Shown: in pieces, positions 2 to 56,628 of the stretch
How positions within the stretch are numbered: the stretch's first letter is position 1
Layout of the letters: each line of letters begins with the position of its first letter
Sequence record: QB031383.1
Source: a phage
Length of the DNA: 64,000 bases
Reading direction: 5' to 3' (one strand)
Made by a program: the position numbers and the translations under genes
The notes under the pieces: model-generated
Seen by the model: the letters and a program-made list of their open reading frames with translations, nothing else
Databases searched by the model: none
What the model was told of the DNA's origin: nothing

Positions 2-154
2 CCAGGTAAGCAACCTAATATGTGGTTGAAATCAGATAAAGAAGGGACCGAAGGAAAATTATGGTTGTATAAATGGGACGATTGGGTTAAAGTAGCTAAA
101 GAGTACGGTGTTTCACCATATATAAGAGATGCAGAAGAGGAGAATGAAGAATGA
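2..154 (+). CDS. 3' end of an upstream CDS running off the window start (hypothetical protein)
   Basis: Open frame from window edge to TGA at 152-154, overlapping the next ATG (ATGA); acidic C-terminus EEENEE. Confidence 0.4.
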   Translation, partial: PGKQPNMWLKSDKEGTEGKLWLYKWDDWVKVAKEYGVSPYIRDAEEENEE

Positions 155-1263
155 CAAGTCCATTTTTAAAAGCAGCTACTGGTGGTCAGAAGAAGCCTGA
201 AATGAGCGTATTTGCTGCAACAACAGATGCAAGTAAATCTGTATTCGCTCCAAGCGTGTTAGATGCCAGTCCTGTTTATGCACCAGCGGCACCGCAAGAA
301 GTTCCAGTTTTGCCTTCTATGACCCGACAAGAGATCGAAGAGATTGGGGCAGAGGCAGGAACAACCTTGCGTTCCTTGAATGCCGAGGTATTAAAACATC
401 AACGTAGTAATCAAGGCGATCAGATGAGTGAACGACTCACAGCTTTGATTAAACAGGCAAAACAACTTGATCCAAACTCTATTAAACAAAGCAAGGGTAT
501 TACTAAACTCATTAAAAAAGTTATGGGTATGAAAGAAGACCTGTTTGGGGAGTTTGATAATGTTAATAACCGTATTGAAGAGTTGGTAAAGAACCTTCAA
601 ATGGATATTCGCAAAGAAGAAGATTCCTTGGTATATCTTGAAAAGCTACATCAAGCTATTGGACAATATGCTGCAAGTTTGAACCGAGATATGCAGCTTC
701 TAACAGCAACCTATGAAAAAGAAGAACAAGCTTTGGCTGCTCTTCCAGAAGATGCAGTAGAACAGCGACAAGTGATCCGAGATACTTTGGATCTTCTGGA
801 GATTCGTATTGCAGATTTAAAAGCATTGCGCCTACTGTGTGTCCAAATGGGACCGCGTGTACAAGGTATGCAAAAAGTTTCTGCAAGCTTAATGCGATCT
901 GCGCGTAACATAGTAAATAATGTTATTCCTGCTTACTCTGCTAACTTCTCAATGTATATTGAGAGCTTACGTCAAATGAAAGCAGCAGAGACGCAGAATA
1001 ACGTTCTTGATGAATTTAACCTGGCAATTAAACTGGGTAGCGATCTTGCCACACAGAATCAGATCGAAGCAGCAGCACTGGCTAACCGTCAAGTGTTGGA
1101 TATTGAAACTCTGCGTCACGATCAGGAAAACTTGGTTAAGATGTTGGAAGAAACTAACCGCATCAATACGGAAGCCCGTGCTGCTCGTGTTGATTATATT
1201 AATGAAGTTCAATCTCTGGAAGACGGGATGGTAGCTGCTGTGAAACGAGGGCTTGGTAAATGA
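151..1263 (+). CDS. telA: TelA-like toxic anion resistance family protein
   Basis: 370 aa ORF, largely helical/coiled-coil composition resembling TelA/KlaA family; stop overlaps next start (ATGA); first gene of a Ter-like cluster. Confidence 0.55.
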   Translation: MTSPFLKAATGGQKKPEMSVFAATTDASKSVFAPSVLDASPVYAPAAPQEVPVLPSMTRQEIEEIGAEAGTTLRSLNAEVLKHQRSNQGDQMSERLTALIKQAKQLDPNSIKQSKGITKLIKKVMGMKEDLFGEFDNVNNRIEELVKNLQMDIRKEEDSLVYLEKLHQAIGQYAASLNRDMQLLTATYEKEEQALAALPEDAVEQRQVIRDTLDLLEIRIADLKALRLLCVQMGPRVQGMQKVSASLMRSARNIVNNVIPAYSANFSMYIESLRQMKAAETQNNVLDEFNLAIKLGSDLATQNQIEAAALANRQVLDIETLRHDQENLVKMLEETNRINTEARAARVDYINEVQSLEDGMVAAVKRGLGK

Positions 1264-1457
1264 GAATCCGTATCTATATAATTGATGAAGACATTGGTGT
1301 CCGTTATGATGACGAAAAACGATTCGCACCGATGGGAGGCATATATCCCCCAAGTGTTCTAGCAGTTTGTCGTGATTGTTATATTTATGAAGGTTGTCGT
1401 AACTTCCGTAAGTTCGAACTGCTTGCAGATATTGACTTCAATGAGGAGGAGGAGTAA
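1260..1457 (+). CDS. hypothetical protein (Cys-rich, acidic C-terminus)
   Basis: 65 aa ORF translationally coupled to the TelA-like gene (ATGA overlap); CxxC-containing. Confidence 0.45.
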   Translation: MRIRIYIIDEDIGVRYDDEKRFAPMGGIYPPSVLAVCRDCYIYEGCRNFRKFELLADIDFNEEEE

Positions 1458-1630
1458 TGAAAATATTACGAGTGAATATTGAAACTGCTTGGTGTGGATG
1501 CAATGAGGTTGTGGATATCGAAATTGAAGATGATATGTCTCAAGAGGATATAGAAGATCTTGCGCACGAAACCTTTCAGGATTATTGTAATTACGGGTTC
1601 CATATTTTAGAGGAGGAAGAAGATGTATAA
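1457..1630 (+). CDS. hypothetical small acidic protein
   Basis: 57 aa ORF not in the track (below 60 aa); ATG overlaps preceding stop (TAATG); ends in EEEEDV. Confidence 0.3.
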   Translation: MKILRVNIETAWCGCNEVVDIEIEDDMSQEDIEDLAHETFQDYCNYGFHILEEEEDV

Positions 1631-2021
1631 TCCAACAGGTATTCTTTTAAAACTTACAGTAACAGACCCTACTCTTTTCACCAAGTTAGCAAGTGGTGAA
1701 GTTTATGAAGTAATGAAAGATGATGACGGTTGGTGTTATCTTTGTGGCTACTTCCTCTGTGATGCAGAAGAGTTAGAATCCATTGTAACTAAAGGTTTTT
1801 ATGAAGAACCAGGGTTCCGTGTGGAAACTACGCAGAAACCTGATACCATTACGTTGACTCGACAAGAACTGATCACAATCATTGAAGATGCTTTTATTGA
1901 TGGCTGGAATACGCAAGATAATGACTGGGGTGGACCCGAAGCTTTTCTGGAACATCATAAAACTTATGGAGACTCTTGTGAAACCACTATAGCTCTTGAT
2001 AATCTGAAGGAGGGTTTGTAA
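1623..2021 (+). CDS. hypothetical protein
   Basis: 132 aa ORF, GGAGG RBS upstream, overlaps neighbours by a few nt as in a coupled operon. Confidence 0.5.
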   Translation: MYNPTGILLKLTVTDPTLFTKLASGEVYEVMKDDDGWCYLCGYFLCDAEELESIVTKGFYEEPGFRVETTQKPDTITLTRQELITIIEDAFIDGWNTQDNDWGGPEAFLEHHKTYGDSCETTIALDNLKEGL

Positions 2022-2584
2022 TGGGTTGTTTTAGCTTTTTGTGCAAAGAATCGGGCAAAGCTGCCCTTTCTACTTCTTTCGACGGATCACCTTGTTATCT
2101 CTTTCTTTTGAAGGACGGTGTTGTTATTGAAGAGATGTATGGCAACTATGATAGTTATGGTTGTGTTTTCTCTGGAAAGGAGGATGAAAACGGCGTTCGT
2201 GAACGGTTCGAATGGGCTATGGATTGGGGTAAGGTTTGTGATTTGATGCATTCCTCAAATCCAAGGGACGGTATCGCTATGGTGCTGGAAGAGTACTTTA
2301 CAGGTGAAATCCCTACAGAACAATCTGACGGAGATCCTAACCAAGGTTGGGGTGATGGTGAAGAAGATCCAGATTGTTTTTTCAGCACAGAAAAGAATAA
2401 GTTTAAACGTGTTGACAACCCTTATCACAAAGTGCATAATACTCTCATTGAAACAGAAGATGACAAGATGGAAATTGAAGAAGATGATCCTCTTGTAACA
2501 CTTCCTATAAGTGAGTTACAAAAGATCACTAAGGAAGCTTACGATTTGGGCTTCAAAATTGGTAGAGGAGGTATGCGTGTTTAG
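2021..2584 (+). CDS. hypothetical protein
   Basis: 187 aa ORF; GAAGGAGG RBS immediately upstream; no recognisable motifs. Confidence 0.5.
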   Translation: MGCFSFLCKESGKAALSTSFDGSPCYLFLLKDGVVIEEMYGNYDSYGCVFSGKEDENGVRERFEWAMDWGKVCDLMHSSNPRDGIAMVLEEYFTGEIPTEQSDGDPNQGWGDGEEDPDCFFSTEKNKFKRVDNPYHKVHNTLIETEDDKMEIEEDDPLVTLPISELQKITKEAYDLGFKIGRGGMRV

Positions 2585-2855
2585 ATTCAATATTCAAGAA
2601 GAAAAAAGTCAGGATTTACCTATTGCTTTCGAAGATCTTGACGTAGGGGCCACATTCATGTATTATGATGCCTATGAAGACGCAGGGTTGGATACCTACC
2701 GTAACTTGGTGTTCATTAAAAATTCCACAAACAGTGCGATTTGTATTAATGGATCACTAGCACAACGAGGCTATACTCATTGCATCCCACCAGATACAAA
2801 TATGGTGGAAGTAGATTTAGAAGTTACCAATATTACACTTAAGAAGGAGAAATAA
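2577..2855 (+). CDS. small protein, paralog A of a duplicated pair
   Basis: GTG start 7 nt after GGAGG; 92 aa; clear similarity to the 3877-4146 product (..DLDVG.TF.Y..A.DE.GLD.. / ..VE.LEVT.ITLK). Confidence 0.5.
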   Translation: MFRFNIQEEKSQDLPIAFEDLDVGATFMYYDAYEDAGLDTYRNLVFIKNSTNSAICINGSLAQRGYTHCIPPDTNMVEVDLEVTNITLKKEK

Positions 2856-2856
2856 T

Positions 2857-3651
2857 ATGTCCGAGAAAATCAGCCTGAAAAAACGTCAAGAAAACCTTGC
2901 TTTCTCTCTGAAAAAGAATAAGAACCTGAATGAAGGTAAGATTGTTCTTCGTGTAGCATGTGCTCTAGATATTTCTGGTAGTATGCATGGTCTATATTCT
3001 AGTGGGGTAGTGAGTGATTTTGTAGGTAAACTGCTTCCTTTTGGTATGCTGTTCGACGATAATCAACAAATTGATATGTGGGCCTTCAATACGAGTTCCC
3101 AAGAGCTTACTCCAGCAACAGCAGATGTTTACGATGACTATGTTGGTAAATGTATGCGTAATGTTCGTATCGGAGGTGGAACAAATTACGCCCCTGTAAT
3201 GGCGGATATCTACGATGAGTATTTTGGCACTGTTACTAAATATATTACCACTAAACAAGTGGTACAAGAGGAGGCTCCAAAGAAAGGCTTCTTTAATCGT
3301 CTGCTTGGTAAAACTGAAACAGTGTCTGTAGAGCGTGAAAAAGTTGTAGCTGTATCTGAACCAGGTGCTGACGTTACCCCTGGTGTTGTATTCTTCCAGA
3401 CGGATGGTGAGAATGGTGATCCTAGTGCTGTTCGTCGTCTTATCGAAGAGAATAAGAATAAACCTATTTATTGGTTCATGGTTGGCGTTGGTAATGAGAA
3501 GTTTGGCTTCCTGAAAGAACTGGCAAATGCTTATGATAATGTTGGTTTTATTGGCATTAAAGATTTAGACTTGACAGATTCAGAGCTTTATGACAAACTC
3601 TTATCTGAAGAGTTCGGAGAGTGGGTTGTTAAAGTAGGTGCTAAAAAATGA
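2857..3651 (+). CDS. vWA domain protein with TerD-like N-terminal start (TerF C-terminal-type vWA)
   Basis: MIDAS motifs present (DISGSM, GGGTNYAPVM, FFQTDGEN); N-terminus MSEKISLKK resembles the TerD-like gene at 4162. Confidence 0.6.
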   Translation: MSEKISLKKRQENLAFSLKKNKNLNEGKIVLRVACALDISGSMHGLYSSGVVSDFVGKLLPFGMLFDDNQQIDMWAFNTSSQELTPATADVYDDYVGKCMRNVRIGGGTNYAPVMADIYDEYFGTVTKYITTKQVVQEEAPKKGFFNRLLGKTETVSVEREKVVAVSEPGADVTPGVVFFQTDGENGDPSAVRRLIEENKNKPIYWFMVGVGNEKFGFLKELANAYDNVGFIGIKDLDLTDSELYDKLLSEEFGEWVVKVGAKK

Positions 3652-3896
3652 TCGACGAGCTTGCCTCTCAAGTCATAGAAAATTATTGGCGCGAGAGAGA
3701 AGCTTTCATTATGCGCAGTCTCAAAGAGTATTTCATTGGGACTGTGCGAATGGAAGATATTGTAAGTAGAGTAGAGATTCATGTATGGCCTGATTATGAA
3801 GAATGGGTTGACAAAGAAAATGAAAATGCTATAATTCTTCGTATATACAAACCGGAGATAACATTAGGAGGAAGAAGTGTTAAACTTCGAAATTGA
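3648..3896 (+). CDS. hypothetical protein
   Basis: 82 aa ORF, start overlaps upstream stop (ATGA). Confidence 0.45.
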   Translation: MIDELASQVIENYWREREAFIMRSLKEYFIGTVRMEDIVSRVEIHVWPDYEEWVDKENENAIILRIYKPEITLGGRSVKLRN

Positions 3897-4146
3897 TGAG
3901 CAAAAAGTAAATAAACGATGCCTTACCATTAAAGATTTGGATGTAGGAGATACTTTCGTCTATGAAAATGCATTTGACGAAAATGGTTTAGACCTTAGTG
4001 AAATCATTGTTTATTTAAAAGTAGATGATGGGGAAAATGATTATTCTGCTGTAGAACTAAACCATCATGCACAATTAGTATCAATCCAAAACACATCTAA
4101 GCTTTTGGAAGTAGAATTGACTGTAACTGGTATTACACTTAAATAA
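3877..4146 (+). CDS. small protein, paralog B of the duplicated pair
   Basis: GTG start after GGAGG; 89 aa; paralogous to 2577-2855. Confidence 0.5.
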   Translation: MLNFEIDEQKVNKRCLTIKDLDVGDTFVYENAFDENGLDLSEIIVYLKVDDGENDYSAVELNHHAQLVSIQNTSKLLEVELTVTGITLK

Positions 4147-4161
4147 TAGAGGAGACAAAAG

Positions 4162-4764
4162 ATGACTGATAAAATTTCCCTGAAAAAAGGCTCTAGCGAA
4201 AAAATTTCCCTGAAGAAAGTTGCTCCGGCTCTGAAAGAACTGCGCCTGGAATTCTCTTGGAAATCTGATTCTAAACTGGATCTGGATGTAAGTGCACTGG
4301 TTTGTCGTCACAATGCCGCTGGCAATCCTGAAATGCTGTCTGCACGTCATCTGGTTTGCTATGCTAACAAGTTTGATCCTGAACGTTCTACCTTCGCTGG
4401 TGACGATGTTCGTGATGGAACTGGCAGCATGGAGCAGATTGATATTACTCTGGCTAAAATCTCTCCTGATGCACAAGAGATTGCCTTTGTTCTGACCATT
4501 GATGATGATACAGGTCTGAAACGTTTTGGTCATGCTTCTGAAGGTATGCTTAAAATCTTCGACTCCGAGCGCAATGTGGAAATTCTGGATTTTGACTTCC
4601 TGGCTCCTGAAGTAGCTGGCAACACAATCTGCCACGTGGCTTCCTTGGTTCGTGAAGATGGGGAATGGAAGCTGAAAGCATATGGTGTAGGTAAAGCTGG
4701 TCTGGATATTTGTGATGTGGTGATGGCCTTCGGTGGTAAAAAAGAATGGTATGAATGTCCATAA
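4162..4764 (+). CDS. terD: TerD-domain stress response protein
   Basis: 200 aa; TerD-like features (N-terminal KISLKKG repeats, LDLDVSALV, GDD..DG acidic Ca-binding-type motifs); strong RBS GAGGAG. Confidence 0.65.
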   Translation: MTDKISLKKGSSEKISLKKVAPALKELRLEFSWKSDSKLDLDVSALVCRHNAAGNPEMLSARHLVCYANKFDPERSTFAGDDVRDGTGSMEQIDITLAKISPDAQEIAFVLTIDDDTGLKRFGHASEGMLKIFDSERNVEILDFDFLAPEVAGNTICHVASLVREDGEWKLKAYGVGKAGLDICDVVMAFGGKKEWYECP

Positions 4765-4782
4765 TAATTAACAAATGATTTT

Positions 4783-4806
4783 GAGGGGGAGAAATCCCCC
4801 TCTTGC
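4783..4806 (+). terminator. stem-loop GAGGGGGA-GAAA-TCCCCCTC after the TerD-like gene (weak U-tract)
   Basis: 8-bp GC-rich perfect stem read directly; T-tract downstream is short, so efficiency uncertain. Confidence 0.45.
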
Positions 4807-4831
4807 AATAAAGCCTCTATCGTGTTATACT
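4803..4831 (+). promoter_or_regulatory. sigma70-like promoter (TTGCAA-17-TATACT)
   Basis: -35 TTGCAA at 4803-4808, -10 TATACT at 4826-4831, upstream of the 4864 gene. Confidence 0.5.
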
Positions 4832-4863
4832 AGAAATTCGTTAACTTAAAAAGGAGGCAAAAT

Positions 4864-5385
4864 TTGCTGATAAAAAACTTTGTAACAGTTGCGTTACTAT
4901 CCTTAACTGCTTTTACATTTACACCTGTTGTGGCGAAAGCCGAAGCTGCAAACGTAAAAACCGCTAAAGTAGTTCACAAATGTACAAAGCAATATAATGA
5001 TAAAATTCTATTAGCTTGTGCAATTTACGCAGAAGGTCGAGGTCTGGGTAAAAAAGGAATGAATGCCGTTGGGAATGTGGTAATCAACAGACGAAATGAT
5101 ACCTACTTCCCTAACACAGTCAGAGGAGTCTTGTTCCAGAAAGGGCAATTCTCATATGCGAAAACTTTTAACGTAACAGAGAAAGATAAGTGGCAGGAAG
5201 CAAAAGCAATAGCGGAGCGTTTACTTTATTTAGAGAAACATTTTCCTGAATTGCGGTCTGTTTTAGATGTTACTAAAGGTGCCCTATACTTCAAGAAACG
5301 GAATATAAGGACAAACTGGGAACGTGATATGCGTCTTGTTTATCGAGATAAAGTGCATGGTTTCTATCTACCAAAGGGGAGTTAA
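4864..5385 (+). CDS. secreted cell wall hydrolase, SleB-like (Hydrolase_2 family); candidate endolysin
   Basis: TTG start after AAAGGAGG; N-terminal signal/SAR-like hydrophobic segment ending AKAEA; SleB-like motifs CAIYAEGRG, VVINRRND, VLFQKGQFSY. Confidence 0.6.
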   Translation: MLIKNFVTVALLSLTAFTFTPVVAKAEAANVKTAKVVHKCTKQYNDKILLACAIYAEGRGLGKKGMNAVGNVVINRRNDTYFPNTVRGVLFQKGQFSYAKTFNVTEKDKWQEAKAIAERLLYLEKHFPELRSVLDVTKGALYFKKRNIRTNWERDMRLVYRDKVHGFYLPKGS

Positions 5386-5386
5386 A

Positions 5387-5671
5387 ATGCAAGAAGATAA
5401 TACTGTTGTTGTAGCAAGTTACCTGGTTGTCGGTCTTACCGAAGAGGACGTATACTACACCCGTAAGCATTTGGAAGCATACGCTACTTTGTTTATGGAA
5501 GATGAAAAGGATGTAGATAAATATAGCATTGATATGATCAACGACAGTATTTATCCTTGTATGGTTCTTAAAGTAGATGCTGTGTTGTGGGAGCGTTTTG
5601 CAAGGACTCATGATGCTGTAGAATGCTCCGCAGTAATGTCTCAAAACAACATTTTAGGGGAGATTCATTGA
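5387..5671 (+). CDS. hypothetical protein
   Basis: ATG at 5387 preceded by AAGGGGAG; track ORF 5324-5671 trimmed to first start with an RBS. Confidence 0.45.
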   Translation: MQEDNTVVVASYLVVGLTEEDVYYTRKHLEAYATLFMEDEKDVDKYSIDMINDSIYPCMVLKVDAVLWERFARTHDAVECSAVMSQNNILGEIH

Positions 5672-17852: not shown

Positions 17853-20528
17853 TTAGTCGTAATATTTCAAACCTGTAATGAACTTCGATCCCCAATCCGC
17901 ACTTGCGGCGGTGAACGTCAACATCCAAGTTGTAGCTGTACCAGTGAAGACCTCTCGTTGCACAGTACCATCAGTGTGGTAAATGTCCACGCCAGTATGT
18001 CCATTCTTAGGAATAGTGAAGGTAACAGCACTGGTAGTGTCTCGTGCATAAGAACAAACAAATGGTGTCCCCGCCCAAACTGGATTTGTCATATCACCCA
18101 TCTCAAGCTGTGGAACCCAAGCAATAAGACCTGCCGTACCATCTCCTGCGAAAGTGTCTGATCCACTTGCATTCAAAGCTATAATCTCATAGGTTATAGA
18201 TGCTTGTTTGGCAACTGTCACTTTGTGTAGAATTACACGATACCAACCGTTCCCCATATCGATTATGTTTGCATCTGCACCTGTAAATGTTCCAGCTACA
18301 AGATCATAAGTCCCTTCGTTAATCTCATCTCCTGAAGTCAATTTGAGTTTCACTTTAGTGATCCCGTCTGGCTTCAAGAATACGGATGCCGCCCAGTGCT
18401 TACCTGCTGTAATATCAGAAGCTGTATTCACTGCTGATAAAATATGTTGTCCTGAAGTTGTAGAAGGTGTTAACTTGTAAGTGTTAGCCGTAGTTCCAAC
18501 CGGAGAGTTGATTGTTGATGCTGTGACTGTCAAGTTCGTCTTCAACCACGGGGAAGCTGTTGTCAAGTTATTGTTGATAAAGATATGTGTACGGTTGGCT
18601 GCTACAACACGTCTACCTTGTGGAGTTGTACCAACATATTCTAAAGGTGCTACGGGAGCAGAACTCTCTGTAGGTACAAGGATATCTCCAGAAGCCCTGG
18701 CATAACGGTTACTCCTGTTGACCTTTACATCCGCCGGAATAGTTTCTTGCGTCAAATCATAGTCCATCACAATGACCACAGCATTCACTGTGAGATAAGA
18801 ACTATCTTCGGCAGTTACCACACCTTGATAAGTTGCTCTACAACCGATACGACAACCTCCATCAGCAACCGCTGTAATAACGCCTGTAACGGGGTCAACT
18901 GTTGCTACCGTAGGGTCATTAGAGAAATACTCAACAACCATACCAGGTAAGCTTGCTGCTCCTGTTGGCGTTATTTCTGCTACCATTGTTTGTGTTGTTC
19001 CTACATCCATCGCAGATAAGCTAGGAGTGTAAACGCTCAATGTTGAAGCATATCCTCCAGAGGTATCTGATAAAGTTGTTCCTTCAGCGTTTAAGGCTGT
19101 CATACCTGCATCAAAACCACCTTCTGCATGGAAAGTCATTAAACCAGTAGATGATATTGTCATGTTTGCAGGGGCAGAAGAAGTGTATTTAATATTGAAA
19201 AGTTTACCTCCTTCTGGGCTAACAGAATGTGTCAACTGTTTAGTTCCACCTACAATACAAATTCCTAAAGAATCTGTAGTTAAGCCAGTTGCCAGAATAT
19301 CACCCGTAATCACGGAGCTTGCTATTGGTGTGAATTTATTATAGTTTAGACCACTATTGAACAGATACGAGGCTTTCCCATCTTTCCAAATACCGGAATA
19401 ATACATATCCCCGTTATAAACGAAAAAGGTTCCTTGATAACCTAATTGGTTAGTAATATCCATATTCAGCGTATGAACGCTTGTGAGCTTGTTTATATCC
19501 CAGGAACCCACTCCTTCAGGTTTAACTGGTTTTCCCACTTGGAGTGGATCTCCGCTCGCAGAATCATACCCCAAACCTAAGTTTGCAGTGTAGTTCTTAC
19601 CAATAGCCCACAAGGAATTGTTGATCCCAACGAAAAAAGAGTGGCGGCTTGGTGGAAATTTCCATGTTGAGAAACCTGCTGCAAAGGTATCCAGTTTAGT
19701 GTAGGTTGTTTCTGTATTAGACCTGACATATAAGTAGTTTACCGTGCCCGTACCACCGGAGGTATCTCCTACAACTATTGTCTGGGAAACTGTATTGATG
19801 TAATCTTTGACATACACTGTTTCAGTAGTGGATATCGTGGCATTGACAAAAGCGGTTGTTGTGTTATTATTACCTGCTAAACCTTTACTAGCTCCACAAA
19901 CACGCAAGGTTCCCACATTGTTGACATAAGAGCATTGGTTGTAACCTGCATCAAAAGCAACTGCTGAACTTGTTATCTGACGAGGAGTAGAAACTTCGTT
20001 AGTAGTGCTTGCACCTAAACTACCTACTGTGTTTTGACCCGATCCATAAAGAACACCACTATTCATTAACCAGAGAGTATTGTTATACCCTCCTTTAACC
20101 TCTTTAAGATTGGCTAAAGAAATAGTCCCTGTTATTACAGATGGAAAGCTGGTCCAAGTAGTTACACATGCATCCGTACCACCTGCTGCTATAGATCCTA
20201 CCAACCCTGCTGTCAATCCTGAATATTGCCATCCCCCACTGTTAGTTTTAATAACAAAACAACGATCTGCGGTAAACACATCCGCTACTACAGTAGAAGC
20301 TAAGTGGAAATTATTGAATCGTGCACTACGAGTTCCATCTGCAATCTCACCAAAGAGGTTTGCGCCTTGAGTAAACAATCTACCATCATTAAGCAAAATT
20401 GCCAAACTGCTGTTAGAATTACCAGCGTTATCTGGGTAATCTAAAGTAATTACTTTTTTAACAATACCTGCTGGCAGAGGAACGACACCAGTGCTGGTCA
20501 TAATAGTAAATATTGGAATTGGAAACAT
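17853..20528 (-). CDS. tail fiber / receptor-binding protein
   Basis: 891 aa, Gly/Thr/Ser/Asn-rich, last gene of the late operon; AGGGTTTAA RBS then ATG. Confidence 0.55.
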   Translation of the reverse strand: MFPIPIFTIMTSTGVVPLPAGIVKKVITLDYPDNAGNSNSSLAILLNDGRLFTQGANLFGEIADGTRSARFNNFHLASTVVADVFTADRCFVIKTNSGGWQYSGLTAGLVGSIAAGGTDACVTTWTSFPSVITGTISLANLKEVKGGYNNTLWLMNSGVLYGSGQNTVGSLGASTTNEVSTPRQITSSAVAFDAGYNQCSYVNNVGTLRVCGASKGLAGNNNTTTAFVNATISTTETVYVKDYINTVSQTIVVGDTSGGTGTVNYLYVRSNTETTYTKLDTFAAGFSTWKFPPSRHSFFVGINNSLWAIGKNYTANLGLGYDSASGDPLQVGKPVKPEGVGSWDINKLTSVHTLNMDITNQLGYQGTFFVYNGDMYYSGIWKDGKASYLFNSGLNYNKFTPIASSVITGDILATGLTTDSLGICIVGGTKQLTHSVSPEGGKLFNIKYTSSAPANMTISSTGLMTFHAEGGFDAGMTALNAEGTTLSDTSGGYASTLSVYTPSLSAMDVGTTQTMVAEITPTGAASLPGMVVEYFSNDPTVATVDPVTGVITAVADGGCRIGCRATYQGVVTAEDSSYLTVNAVVIVMDYDLTQETIPADVKVNRSNRYARASGDILVPTESSAPVAPLEYVGTTPQGRRVVAANRTHIFINNNLTTASPWLKTNLTVTASTINSPVGTTANTYKLTPSTTSGQHILSAVNTASDITAGKHWAASVFLKPDGITKVKLKLTSGDEINEGTYDLVAGTFTGADANIIDMGNGWYRVILHKVTVAKQASITYEIIALNASGSDTFAGDGTAGLIAWVPQLEMGDMTNPVWAGTPFVCSYARDTTSAVTFTIPKNGHTGVDIYHTDGTVQREVFTGTATTWMLTFTAASADWGSKFITGLKYYD

Positions 20529-28306: not shown

Positions 28307-29794
28307 TTACACTCCATACTCGTAAGAAATGTTATCAAGGTCAAAAGAAGGGACAACATTATAAGCAGGAATTATATTATTCTCTGTATATTTACTGTCA
28401 TCCTCAGTATTAAGTTTAACATAAACACGAAGAGAAGTCAAGCGTCCAAAAGCAAGTGCTGCATAAATAACACCTTTGATTTGATCGTTCGTTACTGAAG
28501 AACCTAACTCAAAGTAAGCTTGCAGGTTTTGTAAAGCTTCTACGATGTTTTGTTTTTCTGTTCCACTTAAAGTTGTTCCGTTGACAGTTTGATAAACAAG
28601 TTTTACGGAATACATAGCAGAAGCACCAGGAGAGAAGCGAATAATTTCTTGTCCTCCATCTTCTGTTGTAACTGTTATGTTAGTTGTTCCGTGTGTCAAA
28701 GTGTTGATTGGTTTGGTTTTATAGATAACATTTGCAATTTCTTCTGCACTGCCACCATAAACTATAGTCTGGAAAGTCATAGCTGGAGCATGTTCTTGAT
28801 CATGTAATGTAGGGTTATCATAAATCTTCACCTTAGTAACACCATCTGTAAGTAGCAGGGCTTTCACAATAGCTGCTCGTGTCCCTGCGTTAGCTTCATC
28901 AACGTTGTCATTGAAACGAGAGCGGAATTCTGCGTCTGTCTCAACATCCCGACCAGGAGAAAATGAATAAAAGTTACCACTGTCAAGATAACCTGTAAAG
29001 GTAGAAGATATCCCTGTAATAGACTCCACACCAACAGGATTGTATCCTTTCTCTGCTGCAACTACTGGAATTTCACTCCATTTGGTTCCAACTGGAACAC
29101 TGGCATAAAATTTGATAGGAGTTACTAGTCCCACTGGAGTATCGCTGGTTAAAGAAGTAAAACCAATTGATAAGTTACCTGAATCAGAAAATACAAGACT
29201 ACGATCAGCTTCTGTTAAATTCGCCTTGATAAAAGTTTCAAGATCGGTTATAAATGTAGAAGAACCAGGTGCAAGTGTTTTACTGTTTAGTCCTCCATCC
29301 ACCGCACTTTGTGCATAAAAAGTAATATTTGGAACACCTGTAGCAGTTGCATTAGCACGAGAGATTTGATAAGCTGCAATCTTAGCATTCAACATAGTTG
29401 GTGTGCTAACATAGTAATTCATATCACTATCAGAGTTGAAGTAAATATCCGTGCCTAACTCATAAGTCCAAGCTGCTTTGTTATTACTCTTAACATAGGC
29501 ATAACCTGTACTTGCTGCTGCCCCTGCTCGATAGAAACCGCGTTTAGAAAAGATTTCGTCAAGATAAATACCTTCTGCACCATCCAGTGTTTGAGTATTA
29601 TAAACACCTTGCATACCTTCCCACAATGTGTAATCTGTGTATGCAATTATTCTAAACAGTTGTCCGATCACAGTATCTTCCGAAGTGGCTGCATCTGCAC
29701 CAAATGTGTTTTTTACTGCTGTCATATAATTGTTTAGAACATCGTCAAAAGTCGGGATTACAAATCCCGCATCTGTCAAACCATATTCGTCCAT
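28307..29794 (-). CDS. baseplate protein (J-like)
   Basis: 495 aa; position and N-terminus typical of baseplate J-family proteins (similarity judged by eye only). Confidence 0.45.
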   Translation of the reverse strand: MDEYGLTDAGFVIPTFDDVLNNYMTAVKNTFGADAATSEDTVIGQLFRIIAYTDYTLWEGMQGVYNTQTLDGAEGIYLDEIFSKRGFYRAGAAASTGYAYVKSNNKAAWTYELGTDIYFNSDSDMNYYVSTPTMLNAKIAAYQISRANATATGVPNITFYAQSAVDGGLNSKTLAPGSSTFITDLETFIKANLTEADRSLVFSDSGNLSIGFTSLTSDTPVGLVTPIKFYASVPVGTKWSEIPVVAAEKGYNPVGVESITGISSTFTGYLDSGNFYSFSPGRDVETDAEFRSRFNDNVDEANAGTRAAIVKALLLTDGVTKVKIYDNPTLHDQEHAPAMTFQTIVYGGSAEEIANVIYKTKPINTLTHGTTNITVTTEDGGQEIIRFSPGASAMYSVKLVYQTVNGTTLSGTEKQNIVEALQNLQAYFELGSSVTNDQIKGVIYAALAFGRLTSLRVYVKLNTEDDSKYTENNIIPAYNVVPSFDLDNISYEYGV

Positions 29795-30036
29795 TAGTCA
29801 TCCTCTTTGGTAGATTGTGATCTGCCCCAACGTAAATCAATAAGATTTTTCATGAGGCGAGAAGGGGTTATCATGAAAACAAAAGCCCAACCCATCCATT
29901 CAGGAATTTCTTTTTCTATTCCTAAAAAGATAAACATGCCTGTCATAACAGACATGCCTACAGCGTTCCAAACTTTAGTAGAACTAACCTTATTCTCAGG
30001 ATATGTACAAAACATCCCACGTAAAAATTTTTTCAT
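29794..30036 (-). CDS. small membrane protein (two predicted TM segments)
   Basis: 80 aa; hydrophobic stretches VMTGMFIFLGI and WMGWAFVFMI; charged C-terminus. Confidence 0.4.
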   Translation of the reverse strand: MKKFLRGMFCTYPENKVSSTKVWNAVGMSVMTGMFIFLGIEKEIPEWMGWAFVFMITPSRLMKNLIDLRWGRSQSTKEDD

Positions 30037-30038: not shown

Positions 30039-31634
30039 TTACACCGAAGGTGCATAAACACCGTTAAAGTTAATTGAAATACCGGAAGATTGTAGGTTAG
30101 CAGGAGTAATTAGCAAATCTTTAAGTGTAACAACCACCCAAGGGTTATTGTCCGCTTTATCACAATAAACTCTTGTCACTGTGTCAGACGGAGCATTCAC
30201 AGATACACTTGCTACAGTCATTGATCCATCATTGGAAGCGTAGTATGTAGCAGACGGCATTGACCTGGTGCGCCCATGTGTTATCTCGACGGCCCCAGGT
30301 TTGATAACAGAAACAGAGATATTATTACTCATCCATGCTGGGGGAACAGCACCGGATATAGGAGGTCTTCCATAACGGATCTCACCTGTGGTAGTATTAA
30401 CAAGGAAAGAAACGTCAGCATACGCAGTAATTTTTAATGTGAATGCATTTCCAACTTTAAGCGGCTCCGCGTAAGCTCTAACCCCTGTTAGAGATGTAAC
30501 CCTATCGACACCAGCGGTAGCATAGAACCAGTTTTCTGCATTGTCTGCAATTTCTACAGAAAAATACTCCTCGGAATCAGCAACAACTAACTTATGAGCA
30601 TTGGATATTTTCCATTCACTGTTTGTGTCTTTAGATAAAAGAACCCATTTAGCTTTATCATTACTGTATTTAATAGTACCAGCGACTAATTTTGATCTTG
30701 TCCAAGGCGGGGCAAAATTTGAATATTGCGCTAAATCGGTTGAGGTTTTATTACTCGCCCCTCCTTTGACTATAGACCATAACCCCCTAGCACCTTCTCG
30801 CCCCATCGTATTGTAACCACGTTGTGTATAATGGACGCCTCCATCGTAAGTGCCAATATTGCCATCACCTTTTAAAAATGAAGGACAACCATCAAATACT
30901 GTCACAGCCTCAGTTTTGTTATTACAAACCCATCTTTGTGCATTTTGAATAGCAGCCCATGATTCTTCCGTTCGGTTCCCAGGGCAACCAACGGTAAAAT
31001 TACCAAATAAATCAAAATTAATATCGGCTTTCAGGTCATCTATCAAAGCTATAAAGCGATCTCTATAAGCATTGTATGTGGTTCCTGATGACATATCCGT
31101 CTCACCCTGATGGAACAATACGTATGTTTTACCGACAGTCAGACCAGCGGCAACCATTGCCTGTTTAGCTGCTACTACAGCGTCCACCAACAGCGAGTAA
31201 TATGTTGTCCCTTTTGATAGCTGTGTTATCGACGTTGCGCCACGGCCACAATGAACAACAACAGAACCTCTCCCACTAAGAGCATACCATTCGTTAGTAA
31301 AAGCGCCCCATGCATGACCAGAAGATGCAACTCCAGAAGAACTTACAATAGCTTGTATGATTGGTTTTATTGTCTTATCCCCAAAGTCATACATACGAGA
31401 CATGGGGGAGGCTGCTGGAAAACCTGAAACATCTCCAGACAACACAGCCTCACCTGCGCTATTGGATTGCCCGTAAGTGACAAACACGTCATATACAACA
31501 TCTTGTATTAAACCTTGATCCTTTAGAAGAGATTTGACAGATGTTTTAACCGTTTGTGAAGGTTGCTCCACAATTAAGTAATCTGTATCAGCCACTTTCG
31601 TGGCTGTTGGTAATGCAGAAATAGTCTTGGACAT
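30039..31634 (-). CDS. tail fiber/tailspike with SGNH-hydrolase (sialate-O-acetylesterase-like) domain
   Basis: 531 aa; SGNH block I VTYGQSNSAGE and block V DGGVHYT; N-terminus resembles tail-fiber attachment region. Confidence 0.5.
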   Translation of the reverse strand: MSKTISALPTATKVADTDYLIVEQPSQTVKTSVKSLLKDQGLIQDVVYDVFVTYGQSNSAGEAVLSGDVSGFPAASPMSRMYDFGDKTIKPIIQAIVSSSGVASSGHAWGAFTNEWYALSGRGSVVVHCGRGATSITQLSKGTTYYSLLVDAVVAAKQAMVAAGLTVGKTYVLFHQGETDMSSGTTYNAYRDRFIALIDDLKADINFDLFGNFTVGCPGNRTEESWAAIQNAQRWVCNNKTEAVTVFDGCPSFLKGDGNIGTYDGGVHYTQRGYNTMGREGARGLWSIVKGGASNKTSTDLAQYSNFAPPWTRSKLVAGTIKYSNDKAKWVLLSKDTNSEWKISNAHKLVVADSEEYFSVEIADNAENWFYATAGVDRVTSLTGVRAYAEPLKVGNAFTLKITAYADVSFLVNTTTGEIRYGRPPISGAVPPAWMSNNISVSVIKPGAVEITHGRTRSMPSATYYASNDGSMTVASVSVNAPSDTVTRVYCDKADNNPWVVVTLKDLLITPANLQSSGISINFNGVYAPSV

Positions 31635-31643: not shown

Positions 31644-33806
31644 TTAATCATAATATTTTTGAAGTGTAACAATACTCTCACCAGATAGGGTAAGAATATC
31701 TTCGTTGCTTAGAGTAACTAGTTGTTGTTGGGTTGGGGCATCCCCATTCCAAACCGTATCTTGTAAATAAACGTTCAAAGGCACGTTACCCATATAGAAA
31801 ACTTGGGATTGAGAATTAACTACCGTGATGGAATCGTGCATTATTTGAGGATAGGCCCATATATATTGTGTAAGTCCATTGAACTTATTGGCGTTCAACA
31901 CTATGTTACCTATAATCATCTTCCAAAGATATGTGCGGTAGTTTGATTCAGGATCAAAGCCATACAAAGGTGCAAGAGTAGCATCTGGAACAAAACCTGA
32001 AAGGTAGTGAATATCAGAATATTCAAAGCCTAATTTTTCATGTGGTATGGTAATTGCATCAAATGCTTTCATCATTTTACCTTCCAGAAGCCAGTCGTAA
32101 CACTCTGAACAATAAAAATCAAAAGTTTCAGGAATGTAGTAATCAGACGGAAAGTTAACTTTCTCCATCAAACCGTTGCCGATAATTGATGGTAAGAACG
32201 GAAGCAATGTTACTTTAGCTCCAGGATAAGTTGCTCTGGTGTCTGTTGCAAACTTTGTAACTCTTAACCCTAGTTTACGAGACAAAAATGCATAATATTC
32301 GTCAAATGGTGTTCCTGTTTTATAATTATCTATTGTTCCTGCATCTTGTGCAAATAAGCCTGTTTCTGTATTGAATGCTAGTTTGGTAGTGTAATCATAT
32401 ATACAAGGCATTTTACTTGCTGTATTATACCACCACCAAGGTTCACCAATTTGAATGACGACTGGAATATTGTTAGCTTGAGAAATAGATGCTATTTTGT
32501 TAATAACATTTTGCAAATATTCCATACCTTCATCAATTGTTGGAGATAACACATAACTAGGCGGCTCATAACCTGTTGCTGCAAGAGCATCGTTCCAATC
32601 ATGTTGAACCCATTCTACAGGACAAACTGTGCTCATCAACTCAAAACTCAAAGAGTTCATTATTGTGTAGCCATTTTCATTAGCTATAGAATGGAAACTG
32701 TTAAGCCAAGCTTCTGTAGCCGGATTCAGGAAAACAGATCTATTTAAAGCCCAAGATGTTCCGTTCCATGAGAACTCATAATAGTGAGACATTCCGTTGT
32801 AATGGTTAATCATTCCACGATAACCTAGTGCATATGTATTATAAATAACTCTCTCTGGAGTCAGGTTATACATATCATCATAAGATGTGCACATGCGAAT
32901 ATCATGTTCAGGCTGGACAAGGTTGCTGACTTTCATCATACTATAACCAGAGGTAGGTTCAAGAAGAGTGAAAGTAAACCAAGCCTCTTGACTGTCAATA
33001 GGTACAACCTCTTCTATTTCTTCATACCTTGCTGTAATCAAAGAGAAGAAAATATTATCTACAGCACTCATATCCAAAGGAATATCATTATTAGGGCCAG
33101 AAAAGATATTACCAAAATCTAACTTGATTGTAGCTGTTTTACCATCTTCTGAAATATCCGAAGCGTAGAATCCTAAACTGACATAATGAACACTTTTATC
33201 CAGGAGAGTTACAGTCAAAGTCGGCACCAAAGGTTCTTCTTTAAAACCTGGCATGTTTTGACTAATTTCCATTTTAAACCAAAGTTTCTCTGAACTTAAA
33301 TCTGTGTGGGGCAAATACCCAACACCTTTATGGTCATATTTGTCAACTGTGCTCCAGATAACCCCTGCCAAACCTGCTGTTGTTCTGTTTACAAATCTTG
33401 CAGTAAAAGAGTCTCCATGAGATACAATAGAACAACTTTCCGTTGCTTGAGAATCTATTGTCCAATACATAGGAGAGAACATTTTAACGTCTTTTGTAGT
33501 CCAAGTTATTGGAGTGGTATTTTCTTGGATAGTAGTTATAATACAATTGATGGTTGTTTCAACCATCATATTATTTTGACTAATCCCTGAAACTTGGAGG
33601 GAGAAGTTAAGATCTATTGAGTTCTTTGGTCGTTCAAATACTTCAACCACAATGGTAGCAGAATCAGCATCATCAGGGAACACAAGTGTTCCCGATTTTG
33701 CTATATAATCTCTACCAGCGACTGCTGTTCCATCAACAGTCGTGTAGTTAAATGAACTCGCATTTACTCTCTTGTCTCGCGTGACAGTAAATATAGCTTG
33801 TTTCAT
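31644..33806 (-). CDS. large tail-associated protein
   Basis: 720 aa ORF in tail fiber block. Confidence 0.45.
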   Translation of the reverse strand: MKQAIFTVTRDKRVNASSFNYTTVDGTAVAGRDYIAKSGTLVFPDDADSATIVVEVFERPKNSIDLNFSLQVSGISQNNMMVETTINCIITTIQENTTPITWTTKDVKMFSPMYWTIDSQATESCSIVSHGDSFTARFVNRTTAGLAGVIWSTVDKYDHKGVGYLPHTDLSSEKLWFKMEISQNMPGFKEEPLVPTLTVTLLDKSVHYVSLGFYASDISEDGKTATIKLDFGNIFSGPNNDIPLDMSAVDNIFFSLITARYEEIEEVVPIDSQEAWFTFTLLEPTSGYSMMKVSNLVQPEHDIRMCTSYDDMYNLTPERVIYNTYALGYRGMINHYNGMSHYYEFSWNGTSWALNRSVFLNPATEAWLNSFHSIANENGYTIMNSLSFELMSTVCPVEWVQHDWNDALAATGYEPPSYVLSPTIDEGMEYLQNVINKIASISQANNIPVVIQIGEPWWWYNTASKMPCIYDYTTKLAFNTETGLFAQDAGTIDNYKTGTPFDEYYAFLSRKLGLRVTKFATDTRATYPGAKVTLLPFLPSIIGNGLMEKVNFPSDYYIPETFDFYCSECYDWLLEGKMMKAFDAITIPHEKLGFEYSDIHYLSGFVPDATLAPLYGFDPESNYRTYLWKMIIGNIVLNANKFNGLTQYIWAYPQIMHDSITVVNSQSQVFYMGNVPLNVYLQDTVWNGDAPTQQQLVTLSNEDILTLSGESIVTLQKYYD

Positions 33807-54978: not shown

Positions 54979-55323
54979 TTATTCAGCAATAATACCTTTT
55001 TCTTGCAGTGTTTTAATATATGTTTGTAAACCTAGAACCTTTCGTCTATCTTGCTCCCAAAGAGCATTGTTTTGAGTTTGGTTGTTAACAACTTCAGATC
55101 TACTAACCCCTTTTGCAATTTGATTTTTAGTGTATGGCACAGGTGTCGATACTTTATCCATCAAGTCCGAATCTGGACCTTTAACCTTTTCTATGGCTAC
55201 AGCCTTACACTCATCAATAAGAACTGGGGAAACTTTTGTTGATGATGAACAACCCGTCATCATTAGGGGCAAAGCAAGACATACTGCCAGAATTAGTTTT
55301 TGCATAATTCGTTGTATCCTCAT
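54979..55323 (-). CDS. o-spanin (outer-membrane lipoprotein, Rz1-like)
   Basis: Signal peptide with lipobox LMMTGC; embedded out of frame in the 3' part of the i-spanin gene. Confidence 0.55.
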   Translation of the reverse strand: MRIQRIMQKLILAVCLALPLMMTGCSSSTKVSPVLIDECKAVAIEKVKGPDSDLMDKVSTPVPYTKNQIAKGVSRSEVVNNQTQNNALWEQDRRKVLGLQTYIKTLQEKGIIAE

Positions 55324-55606: not shown

Positions 55607-55650
55607 TATCTTCTACTTCCTCATAAAATTTTATTTTAGGAAGAGAAGGG

Positions 55651-55821: not shown

Positions 55822-55881
55822 GCGCATATTTTATCCTCCTCATATCTGATCTTATCACAAAATGATATACAATTGCAAGCA

Positions 55882-56550: not shown

Positions 56551-56552
56551 AT

Positions 56553-56627: not shown

Positions 56628-56628
56628 C

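Follow-up and report, generated by a model that had tools for sequence, protein, structure and literature searches.

The gene at positions 4864–5385 (forward strand) of the window, as the whole 64,000-nucleotide stretch of record QB031383.1 is called here, encodes a small murein hydrolase of the SleB/CwlJ type. We consider it, at a probability of roughly 0.6, to be an exported accessory wall-degrading enzyme, probably a lytic transglycosylase, and not the sole endolysin of its phage. The window makes up about 42% of a Phapecoctavirus genome of roughly 150 kb and is 99.5% identical to phage Mt1B1_P17. A preliminary description of this DNA had proposed a possibly holin-independent, SAR-endolysin-like lysis system; the presence of a second, cytoplasmic lysozyme in the close relatives and a signal that looks cleavable speak against this, and what emerges is an ordinary set of dispersed lysis genes with an extra secreted hydrolase.

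The hydrolase gene is already known and annotated in E. coli phages of the phAPEC8 type. The same gene, 98–99% identical in DNA and protein, is present in phAPEC8 (JX561091 and NC_020079), where it is named putative cell wall hydrolase SleB, and in Phapecoctavirus and Justusliebigvirus orthologues including gp170 of phi92; the corresponding RefSeq genes are named endolysin. Nothing of substance differs between these orthologues, and only the labels vary, from hypothetical protein and cell wall hydrolase to spore cortex-lytic enzyme and endolysin. The neighbouring genes are also shared, with TerD-like genes upstream and three small open reading frames followed by four glycosyltransferase genes downstream. 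Its place is in the replication/early arm, as had been proposed, and the spanin genes are a long way off.

The open reading frame has its boundaries at exactly 4864 and 5385 and contains 173 codons from a TTG start, giving a precursor of 19.8 kDa. In a profile search it matches the Pfam family Hydrolase_2 (Cell Wall Hydrolase) with an E-value of 1.3e-17 and a score of 64.6 bits, above the gathering cut-off of 27 bits. The match spans residues 62–168 and covers profile positions 3–100 of 100. The protein also matches PHROG 938, which is labelled endolysin; this name, given in RefSeq as well, runs counter to an accessory role. The sequence matches the SleB structures 4F55 and 4FET, with about 25% identity to SleB. 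The AF2 model has a pLDDT of 89.9 overall and of more than 90 over residues 27–173, the N-terminal part being of low pLDDT. When this model was compared with the PDB using Foldseek, 4F55 and 4FET, both catalytic domains of SleB, were the sole fold matches, with a probability of 1.0 and TM-scores of 0.72–0.75 on the target. The catalytic glutamate is predicted to be Glu57 (codon GAA, positions 5032–5034), which aligns with the first Glu of the YGESRGE motif of SleB. By chain numbering, its counterparts are E157 in Bacillus cereus SleB and E151 in Bacillus anthracis SleB. This assignment was made from the HMMER alignment and the chain numbering and is backed by two publications: a catalytic Glu is essential for SleB and likewise for a SleB-like T6SS effector (PMC12331253, PMC11148199), by which E. 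coli is lysed from the periplasm in a Glu-dependent manner (PMC11148199). In alignments of 71 and 75 homologues, Glu57 is one of just two invariant residues. The preliminary identification of a SleB-type hydrolase is thus borne out by Pfam match, predicted fold and catalytic Glu.

The phage hydrolase resembles the spore-cortex lytic enzymes SleB and CwlJ of Bacillus in the fold of its catalytic domain, in its catalytic Glu and in the motifs Y-x-E-x-R-G, N-R and Q-F, and its chemistry is probably that of a lytic transglycosylase. It differs from SleB in being a single-domain protein, like CwlJ, in its low identity and in being exported to a Gram-negative periplasm. Neither the Pfam search nor the AF2 model revealed a second domain or an N-terminal peptidoglycan-binding domain, and no more than 30 residues separate the catalytic domain from the predicted cleavage site. 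The E. coli host, furthermore, does not have a cortex containing muramic-delta-lactam, and the substrate must therefore be ordinary murein. Given the missing peptidoglycan-binding domain and a host without cortex, the protein is a SleB-fold enzyme and not a SleB orthologue. The predicted mature enzyme (residues 27–173, positions 4942–5382) has a computed mass of 17.0 kDa for 147 amino acids and a computed pI of 9.9; it contains two cysteines, C40 and C52.

The N-terminus, previously called signal/SAR-like, does contain a hydrophobic export signal, and it looks like an ordinary cleavable Sec signal peptide rather than a SAR anchor. By sequence rules and conservation, the predicted signal peptide consists of residues 1–26 (MLIKNFVTVALLSLTAFTFTPVVAKA, followed by EA; positions 4864–4941). 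It contains K4, a hydrophobic core free of Gly, P21 at position −6 and an A-K-A cleavage site preceding a Glu. The hydrophobic stretch is 19 residues long, with 37% Ala, Ser or Thr and a peak Kyte-Doolittle value of 1.67 over 19 residues. Position −1 is Ala in all 14 close relatives and position −3 is small in 12 of these 14 as aligned, the remaining two being in an alternative register; the residues between −3 and −1 vary while the small residues at −3 and −1 are kept. The predicted cleavage site is followed, ahead of the catalytic domain, by about 20 residues (ANVKTAKVVHKC and onward) that are well conserved. The signal-peptide features recur in most family members that are more distant, and the homologues of rV5-type phages and of T5 have short textbook signal peptides, that of T5 sleB being MKAAWLLVAALTFSFSSQA, followed by Ser. 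For the CB7 homologue a signal peptide has been reported, together with toxicity when expressed in E. coli (PMC7344957). Export as a lipoprotein was ruled out, there being no Cys at +1, and so was Tat export, the twin-arginine motif being absent.

Upstream of the gene, directly after a TerD-like gene, is a GC-rich stem-loop (GAGGGGG-AGAAAT-CCCCCTC, positions 4783–4802, forward strand) with a calculated dG of −17.2 kcal/mol and a z-score of −3.1. It is kept, with stem-preserving changes, in Justusliebigvirus Paula and in phage PsgM04F. A terminator scan did not call this hairpin, and it was rejected as a canonical intrinsic terminator for want of a T-run; it may be a transcript boundary or stabiliser. 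Immediately following it, at 4803–4831 on the forward strand, a promoter scan found a sigma-70-type candidate, consisting of TTGCAA, a 17-nt spacer and a TG-extended TATACT, with nine of 12 matches and the TG preceding the −10 element. The −35 and the TGnTA..T −10 elements are kept in relatives whose protein is 67–75% identical, with a spacer that varies. Promoter-like sites in the region are not enriched over shuffled sequences (59 found, 47.6 ± 7.2 expected), so the case for this promoter rests on its conservation and is graded weak. A strong Shine-Dalgarno sequence can be read at 4850–4857 (AAAGGAGG, forward strand), 6 nt upstream of the TTG start, and AGGAGG and the TTG are both conserved in Paula and PsgM04F. 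In the rV5-type phages the SleB-type gene stands between a canonical terminator upstream and rIIA-rIIB downstream. In our window, the 94-amino acid open reading frame downstream encodes a soluble protein of PHROG 16257, which has no assigned function.

The hydrolase had been taken for the only recognisable peptidoglycan hydrolase. This holds within the window, while near-identical complete genomes carry a lysozyme of family PF00959. In the close relatives this T4 e-type lysozyme, of 166 amino acids, is encoded in the part of the genome outside the window, about 75 kb from the SleB-type gene and in a non-structural region. It contains the motifs MLRVDEG, YQD and WT, with the Glu14/Asp23/Thr29 triad, is free of a transmembrane domain (TMD) and is 47% identical to T4-like e genes. 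At an identity of at least 95%, 65 phage records, at the level of Phapecoctavirus, contain the lysozyme and 65 the SleB-type gene; among the 60 accessions listed, 55 are common to both. The SleB protein closest to that of our window (99.4%) is from ECO340P1, where the lysozyme is annotated 'E: endolysin' and is located 76 kb from the SleB-type gene. From relatives of about 99% identity, the source phage is expected to contain the lysozyme too. Because the lysozyme of the close relatives is encoded outside the window, the readings 'only hydrolase' and 'holin-independent' are both artefacts of the window. A separate endolysin is thus found in the close relatives, alongside a hydrolase signal peptide that is predicted to be ordinary. 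Among 20 structural proteins encoded in the window, no further peptidoglycan-hydrolase or tail-associated lysin domain was found. As a point counter to the accessory role, the T4-type lysozyme could in principle, with no tail-associated muralytic domain found, serve at infection, leaving the SleB-type enzyme as the main lysin.

The two-component spanin of the Rz/Rz1 type is encoded at 54979–55606 on the reverse strand, in an overlapped architecture. The i-spanin (55214–55606, 130 amino acids; PHROG 4297 'Rz-like spanin', E-value 3.4e-35) has an N-terminal TMD formed by residues 7–25 and a coiled-coil periplasmic domain. The o-spanin (54979–55323, 114 amino acids; PHROG 1267 'Rz-like spanin', E-value 8.7e-21) is a lipoprotein with the lipobox LMMTG-C; its gene shares 110 nt with the 3' end of that for the i-spanin. 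The spanin group of phi92 and phAPEC8 has been catalogued (PMC6139136). The pair adjoins the terminase gene, and its distance from the hydrolase gene, earlier estimated at about 50 kb, is 49.6 kb. There is no cassette of adjacent holin, endolysin and spanin genes: in Mt1B1_P17 the SleB-type gene is located at 43.8 kb, the spanin genes at 92.7–93.3 kb and the lysozyme gene at 118.9 kb.

The earlier statement that no canonical holin lies beside either the hydrolase or the spanin genes agrees with this dispersal; its two holin candidates fared differently. The first (29794–30036, reverse strand) is a real open reading frame for 80 amino acids, located within the baseplate gene block and matching PHROG 1322 'membrane protein' (E-value 2.5e-27). 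Its two hydrophobic segments and charged C-terminus give it a holin-like class II topology, and a role as a holin is plausible from this layout; it matches no holin family. The second, a supposed small membrane protein at 55590–55821, was rejected, with six stop codons in that frame. The real, conserved gene at this site (55657–55827, reverse strand) encodes a charged soluble protein of 56 amino acids, which matches PHROG 15229 (E-value 6e-38) via its Mt1B1_P17 counterpart; an alternative open reading frame for 71 amino acids (55590–55805) matches nothing. Many small membrane proteins emerged when the window and the Mt1B1_P17 genome were scanned for hydropathy, and a PHROG scan of 10 of these found no holin family. 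The gene at the right edge of the window, labelled 'hol-like chemotaxis', was rejected as a holin gene, its product being soluble and of the coiled-coil type.

In large virulent myophages it is usual for the lysis genes to be scattered. In T4, the genes e, t and rz/rz1 lie apart, and the present phage shares with T4 this scattering, with the e-type lysozyme gene away from holin and spanin genes. The two differ in that no T-type holin was recognised here and that T4 does not have a secreted SleB-type enzyme.

Secreted SleB-type enzymes are also encoded by less closely related phages. The homologues of Vequintavirinae (CB7_83, CR3_087 and those of rV5 and PVP-SE1) and T5 sleB share with our protein a signal peptide, a single Hydrolase_2 domain and a location in the early or replication region, despite an identity of only 31–37%. 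These phages likewise have a separate endolysin of another family and spanins encoded elsewhere, in the rV5 group beside the terminase gene. The SleB-type gene heads the rIIA-rIIB block in Vequintavirus and Henunavirus and is followed by a gene for a protein with two TMDs in Certrevirus and Henunavirus; neither of these adjoins the gene in our window. T5 sleB is located in the early region, among annotated early promoters, and the holin-endolysin cassette of T5 is well established. In CB7, PVP-SE1, BME3, Septuagintavirus and iGC_PHA_EC001 a secreted SleB-like enzyme is paired with another endolysin, and T5-like Salmonella phages encode an M15C peptidase adjoining the holin as well as a distant SleB gene (PMC11180984). 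In Pakpunavirus, the sole Hydrolase_2 protein seen is an 'endolysin' with an N-terminal TMD that looks uncleaved. Throughout Stephanstirmvirinae and Vequintavirinae the SleB-type gene is kept, and it is the second enzyme that differs. Published work already describes the two-enzyme layout for Phapecoctavirus and for the rV5-, PVP-SE1- and T5-like phages; no experimental work on the SleB-type proteins of Phapecoctavirus, phi92 or T5 was found in the literature.

The hydrolase can also be compared with Lys44 of oenophage fOg44, P1 Lyz and phage 21 R, with which it shares an N-terminal hydrophobic export signal and membrane crossing without a holin. Each of those proteins is the only endolysin that its phage has, and is restrained in its activity as long as the membrane remains energised. 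In our case there is a second lysozyme, a cytoplasmic one; the signal looks like one that is cleaved, and a control mechanism is not evident. A cleavable Sec signal on a muralytic enzyme, as in Lys44, is what sequence rules and conservation predict for the hydrolase. SAR endolysins are characterised by a TMD of weak hydrophobicity that is rich in Gly, Ala and Ser and has no signal-peptidase site, and the hydrolase does not show this pattern.

In the model that we favour, the hydrolase gene would probably be transcribed by the host RNA polymerase as a unit of its own in the replication/early arm, from the conserved sigma-70-like promoter behind the stem-loop, and translation would initiate at the conserved, weak TTG codon. 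The precursor would pass through SecYEG and be cleaved by signal peptidase I after Ala26 (AKA-EA). The basic mature enzyme of 17 kDa would then fold in the periplasm, where C40 and C52 may form a disulfide, and use Glu57 to cut MurNAc-GlcNAc bonds of the sacculus. The principal lysis route would consist of the cytoplasmic T4 e-type lysozyme, a holin, of which none was recognised, and the Rz/Rz1-type spanin pair.

The strongest alternative, which we regard as possible but unlikely, is that the SleB-type enzyme is the principal endolysin, exported by Sec without a holin like Lys44, and that the T4-type lysozyme is otherwise employed, for instance in wall penetration at infection. The endolysin labels of PHROG and RefSeq agree with this, as do the retention of the SleB-type gene across both subfamilies with a variable second enzyme, the failure to recognise a holin anywhere in the Mt1B1_P17 genome, the absence of a tail lysin domain from the 20 structural proteins, the toxicity of the CB7 homologue in E. 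coli (PMC7344957) and the anchored-looking Pakpunavirus protein annotated 'endolysin'. Against it, a full-length T4 e orthologue with its triad intact co-occurs in the close relatives (55 of the 60 accessions listed) and is encoded in a non-structural region, and the T5-like phages encode a secreted SleB enzyme of this kind as well as an endolysin next to the holin. Early or middle export without obvious control would, moreover, risk premature lysis, and a conventional pathway of three steps is implied by the presence of spanins. It is less probable still that the enzyme is an early periplasmic remodelling factor, involved not in terminal lysis but in lysis timing or inhibition, cell enlargement or superinfection exclusion. 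T4 Sp, an early-made periplasmic superinfection-exclusion protein, provides a precedent, and the promoter-like element of the gene in the early/replication arm, the position of its homologues at the head of the rIIA-rIIB block in Vequintavirus and Henunavirus, the early promoters around T5 sleB and a conserved non-ATG start, which fits low dosage, all point this way. In Zymomonas, a Gram-negative bacterium, a SleB homologue has a housekeeping function in remodelling (bioRxiv 10.64898/2026.07.21.739787). Gene position is, however, a mere proxy for timing, the toxicity of the CB7 homologue and the lysis caused by the SleB-like effector equally suit a lytic role, and in Phapecoctavirus no evident partner or immunity protein adjoins the gene, the 94-amino acid product downstream being soluble.

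A SAR anchor, from which a tethered, inactive enzyme would be freed by a pinholin or an energy poison when the membrane potential collapses, is improbable. The hydrophobic stretch is fairly long, with the composition and hydropathy given above, and signal peptides predicted on lysins of phages with Gram-negative hosts have often been interpreted as SAR domains (PMC8223927); but its core contains no Gly, a Pro is present at −6, the A-x-A site before Glu is kept in relatives despite changing surroundings, and a conserved segment starting with ANVKTAKVVHKC separates the site from the catalytic domain. The hydrophobic segment also contains no Cys for disulfide caging of the P1 Lyz type, and short textbook signal peptides are present in the rV5-type and T5 homologues. 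That the protein is a virion-associated lysin piercing the wall at infection has a negligible probability: no muralytic domain was found in the 20 structural proteins, which leaves room for a virion lysin, if there is one, but a Sec signal peptide takes the protein away from the cytoplasm, the site of virion assembly, and the gene is outside the structural block. All 26 virion proteins of CB7 identified by mass spectrometry map to gene region 1 except CB7_55, and the region-2 homologue CB7_83 was undetected (PMC7344957).

Among virulent phages that infect Gram-negative bacteria and are unrelated to one another (phAPEC8/phi92-, rV5/PVP-SE1- and T5-like phages and Pakpunavirus), the secreted SleB-type enzymes with a single domain may constitute a conserved class, mostly accompanied by another endolysin and encoded in early or replication regions. 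Their true role could then be to act on the sacculus early and independently of a holin, in lysis timing, back-up lysis or superinfection exclusion, rather than in terminal lysis; we put this forward tentatively and think it doubtful as it stands. Many coliphages that are candidates for therapy carry two wall-degrading enzymes, and the databases call the secreted SleB-type one 'endolysin' without evidence. To know which of the two is responsible for lysis, and what part the exported one plays, matters for the choice of enzybiotics and for understanding lysis timing; the question is a modest one of annotation and does not concern a new kind of system. In phage SKA64 the lysozyme is annotated as an aminomutase, and the second enzyme has been overlooked in at least one paper.

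The hydrolase gene (4864-5385, plus strand), located exactly in the preliminary description, is a real gene encoding a precursor of 173 residues, with a TTG start codon 6 nt downstream of AAAGGAGG. The protein has the defining features of the Pfam domain Hydrolase_2 ('Cell Wall Hydrolase', the SleB/CwlJ domain), which it matches at 64.6 bits (cut-off 27), and it also matches PHROG 938. When the PDB was searched by sequence, SleB catalytic domains were the only matches. The AlphaFold2 model, calculated with 75 homologues, has a mean pLDDT of 89.9, low values being confined to the first 30 or so residues, and Foldseek retrieved only PDB entries 4F55 and 4FET with it (probability 1.0, TM-scores 0.72-0.75). 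Glu57 (codon 5032-5034) is aligned with the first glutamate of the SleB motif YGESRGE, which by chain numbering is residue E157 of the B. cereus protein and E151 of the B. anthracis protein. Only one other residue is, like Glu57, invariant in alignments of 71 and 75 sequences. A catalytic glutamate is indispensable both in SleB and in a T6SS effector of SleB fold, which lyses E. coli from the periplasm (PMC12331253, PMC11148199). Domain score, PDB sequence matches, fold and aligned glutamate bear out the SleB-type identity first proposed, and the enzyme is predicted from sequence and model to be probably active. Orthology to Bacillus SleB was rejected, as a PG-binding domain is missing from the phage protein and a cortex substrate from the host. 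The gene is orthologous to phi92 gp170 and to the gene already annotated as 'putative cell wall hydrolase SleB' in phAPEC8, and is not new at the level of sequence or annotation.

The amino-terminus, MLIKNFVTVALLSLTAFTFTPVVAKA/EAANVK (the slash marks the predicted cleavage site), has the three-part layout of a signal peptide, with a lysine in the n-region, a glycine-free hydrophobic core, proline at -6, alanine at -3 and -1 and glutamate at +1. Conservation is the stronger argument. Across 14 homologues of Stephanstirmvirinae type (61-88% identical), little changes in the hydrophobic core or in the amino-terminus of the mature protein (ANVKTAKVVHKC), and the c-region occurs as VVAKA, VVAQA, VIGIA, VTATA, IMVHA, VTAYA and other variants. 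Despite this variation, position -1 is alanine in all 14, while position -3 is small in 12 as aligned, the other two being in an alternative register. A varying c-region with retained -1 and -3 residues is the pattern expected under selection for cleavage by signal peptidase I. Among more distant homologues, textbook signal peptides are present in an rV5-type protein (MKIKIFAIILSAFLSLPVVA/AP) and in the T5 SleB (MKAAWLLVAALTFSFSSQA/S), and inspection of 71 family members showed them in most; one has been reported for the homologue of Pectobacterium phage CB7, which was reportedly toxic when expressed in E. coli (data not shown in that source; PMC7344957). The predicted mature protein (147 residues, 17.0 kDa, pI 9.9) contains exactly two cysteines, C40 and C52, kept as far as the rV5 and Henunavirus types (H-x-C ... 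L-A-C-x-x-Y-x-E), which would fit a periplasmic disulfide. Layout and conservation lead us to read the amino-terminus as a predicted ordinary, cleaved Sec signal peptide, so that of the 'signal/SAR-like' segment described earlier the first half is retained; identification as a signal-arrest-release (SAR) endolysin failed on sequence criteria. In Pakpunavirus PAK_P4, a Hydrolase_2 protein of 186 residues annotated 'endolysin' (2824-3384 of its locus) has an amino-terminal hydrophobic segment, METLEALVLSILLAFIGMFLDMEY..., without a positive n-region or obvious cleavage site; this segment resembles a signal anchor or SAR domain more closely than the amino-terminus of our protein does.

Across 2.5 kb around the hydrolase gene, the window shares 99.5% identity with Escherichia phage Mt1B1_P17 (NC_052662.1) and about 99% with dozens of further phAPEC8-like phages (Phapecoctavirus, Stephanstirmvirinae). 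These genomes measure about 145-156 kb, so the window represents about 42% of one genome. The SleB-type enzyme had been called the only recognisable peptidoglycan hydrolase; this holds within the window, where none of 20 structural proteins examined yielded a muralytic domain, but not for the genome type, since Mt1B1_P17 encodes a T4 e-type 'Phage lysozyme' (PF00959, 166 residues) at 118,858-119,358. This protein contains the Glu-Asp-Thr triad of T4 lysozyme, lacks a hydrophobic amino-terminus and shares 47% identity, along its entire length, with the e gene products of T4-like phages. Lysozyme genes at least 95% identical occur in 65 phage records, and SleB-type genes at least 95% identical also in 65; among the 60 matches listed for each, 55 accessions are common to both, and several of the remaining listed accessions turn up in the other searches. 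Phage ECO340P1, which has the closest SleB-type protein (99.4% identity), carries its lysozyme, annotated 'E: endolysin', 76 kb away from the SleB-type gene. The two-enzyme layout has been published for Septuagintavirus, and for Phapecoctavirus iGC_PHA_EC001 (PMC10793346), BME3 and PVP-SE1 (PMC12210895), CB7 and Vequintavirinae (PMC7344957) and T5-like Salmonella phages (PMC11180984). SKA64 was stated to possess a single endolysin, the Hydrolase_2 protein (PMC10282059), probably because its T4 e-type lysozyme gene (OM362897.1, 30692-31192) is annotated 'tyrosine 2,3-aminomutase'.

The overlapping spanin pair was confirmed: the i-spanin (55214-55606, minus strand) has a transmembrane segment at residues 7-25 and the o-spanin (54979-55323, minus strand) a lipobox, LMMTG/C, their genes overlap by 110 nt and the pair matches PHROGs 4297 and 1267. 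The phAPEC8 and phi92 pair has been catalogued (PMC6139136). The genes adjoin the large terminase gene, as they do in rV5, PVP-SE1 and CB7 (PMC7344957). Of the two small membrane proteins put forward as holins, that at 55590-55821 is interrupted by six stops, and the conserved gene there (55657-55827, minus strand) encodes a charged, soluble protein of 56 residues. The other (29794-30036, minus strand; PHROG 1322, 'membrane protein') is a real protein of 80 residues inside the baseplate block, with two hydrophobic segments and a charged carboxy-terminus; its predicted class-II-holin-like topology makes it at most a candidate holin. A hydropathy scan of the Mt1B1_P17 genome revealed many small membrane proteins, and none of the ten tested matches a holin family or lies beside the lysozyme gene. 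A gene truncated at the window end (PHROG 18076; about 63699-64000, plus strand) has relatives labelled 'hol-like chemotaxis', but its product is an acidic coiled-coil protein, soluble and lacking a transmembrane segment, so 'hol-like' should not be taken as 'holin'. Dispersed lysis genes are normal in large virulent myophages, T4 being the textbook case.

A gap of 99 nt separates the SleB-type gene from the upstream TerD-like gene. It contains a stable stem-loop (4783-4802; dG -17.2 kcal/mol, z = -3.1) lacking a T-run and, directly after it, a promoter candidate (4803-4831; TTGCAA, 17 nt, TG-extended TATACT). Justusliebigvirus Paula and phage PsgM04F retain the stem-loop, both hexamers, the SD sequence and the TTG start, with a varying spacer; overall, the promoter scan gave no enrichment over shuffles, and these putative elements are suggestive only. 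The Vequintavirus homologue is preceded by a canonical terminator, has a GTG start and overlaps the start of rIIA-rIIB, and the T5 SleB gene lies among annotated early promoters. Together, this context points to independent, probably early or middle, transcription and weak translation. In rV5-type phages, as seen in Vequintavirus Pr121LW (2995-5474 of its locus) and Henunavirus pEp_SNUABM_01 (2498-5245 of its locus), the gene for the secreted SleB-like protein lies immediately before rIIA-rIIB and overlaps it, an arrangement absent beside our gene. The Henunavirus order is SleB, a two-TMD protein of 76 residues, rIIA, rIIB; the Certrevirus SleB gene is overlapped by that of a two-TMD 'class II holin candidate' (PMC7344957). 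The rV5-type arrangement hints at a link with lysis-timing control.

We favour, with a probability of about 0.6, an accessory wall enzyme, made at a low level, Sec-exported and cleaved, over a sole endolysin. The precursor would be exported via Sec and cut after Ala26, and the basic 17-kDa enzyme would use Glu57 to attack the sacculus and, like SleB, would probably be a lytic transglycosylase. The holin-endolysin pair of T5 is well established. The accessory role is argued by the intact T4 e-type lysozyme and spanin pair, by T5-like phages, where a secreted SleB-kind enzyme accompanies a holin-adjacent endolysin (PMC11180984), and by rV5-type lineages, where according to the literature the SleB-type enzyme is conserved and the second enzyme swapped between families. 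In its predicted mode of export it resembles Sec-exported endolysins, any part in lysis being putative.

Neither a tail lysin nor a holin was found among the proteins examined, which leaves some room for the SleB-type enzyme as main, holin-independent endolysin, the T4-type lysozyme having another task; we consider this unlikely, and attach a similarly low probability to a distinct early periplasmic role hidden in this enzyme family. A non-lytic early role in remodelling or exclusion is rated lower still, and SAR tethering appears very improbable. Both the export signal and the virion proteome of CB7 (PMC7344957) speak against association with the virion, and its probability is close to nil. 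Taken as a whole, the earlier observation is confirmed in part and its interpretation supported in part.

The window comprises a partial replication/early arm on the plus strand (tellurite-resistance/TerD-like genes, glycosyltransferases, primase-helicase, DNA polymerase) and a complete structural block on the minus strand, ending in the terminase and spanin genes. The tellurite-resistance-type cluster upstream of the hydrolase (151-4764, plus strand) encodes a 'tellurite resistance' protein of 370 residues (PHROG 5890), a 264-residue protein with a vWA-like DxSGSM motif and a TerD-like 'general stress protein' of 200 residues; in Mt1B1_P17, a TerC-like membrane protein immediately precedes the position matching the window start. 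Two tail-block proteins (30039-31634 and 31644-33806, minus strand) are notable for domains that are carbohydrate-active or unusual. A SASA sialate-O-acetylesterase domain occurs in one of them; the second, of 720 residues, has Calx-beta plus 'non-contractile tail sheath' amino-terminal and TIM-barrel domains in what is a contractile-tailed phage. This phage group has multiple receptor-binding proteins, and an 891-residue tail protein (17853-20528, minus strand) that combines a Big_2 domain with RCC1-like beta-propeller repeats probably belongs to them. Where the structural block ends with the spanin and terminase genes, and before the next early region, ARAGORN locates a cluster of ten tRNA genes (56472-58395, minus strand; two Met, Ile, Pro, Gln, Gly, Thr, Asn, Ser and Arg); the Mt1B1_P17 annotation has 11 features here, two of them marked as pseudo-tRNAs. 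The coordinate offset to Mt1B1_P17 shifts by about 1.2 kb from the hydrolase to the spanins (window about 17800-55600), so at least one indel separates the otherwise near-identical sequences; Mt1B1_P17 has an additional 'endonuclease' gene (56853-57260) and tail-protein sizes unlike those of the window.
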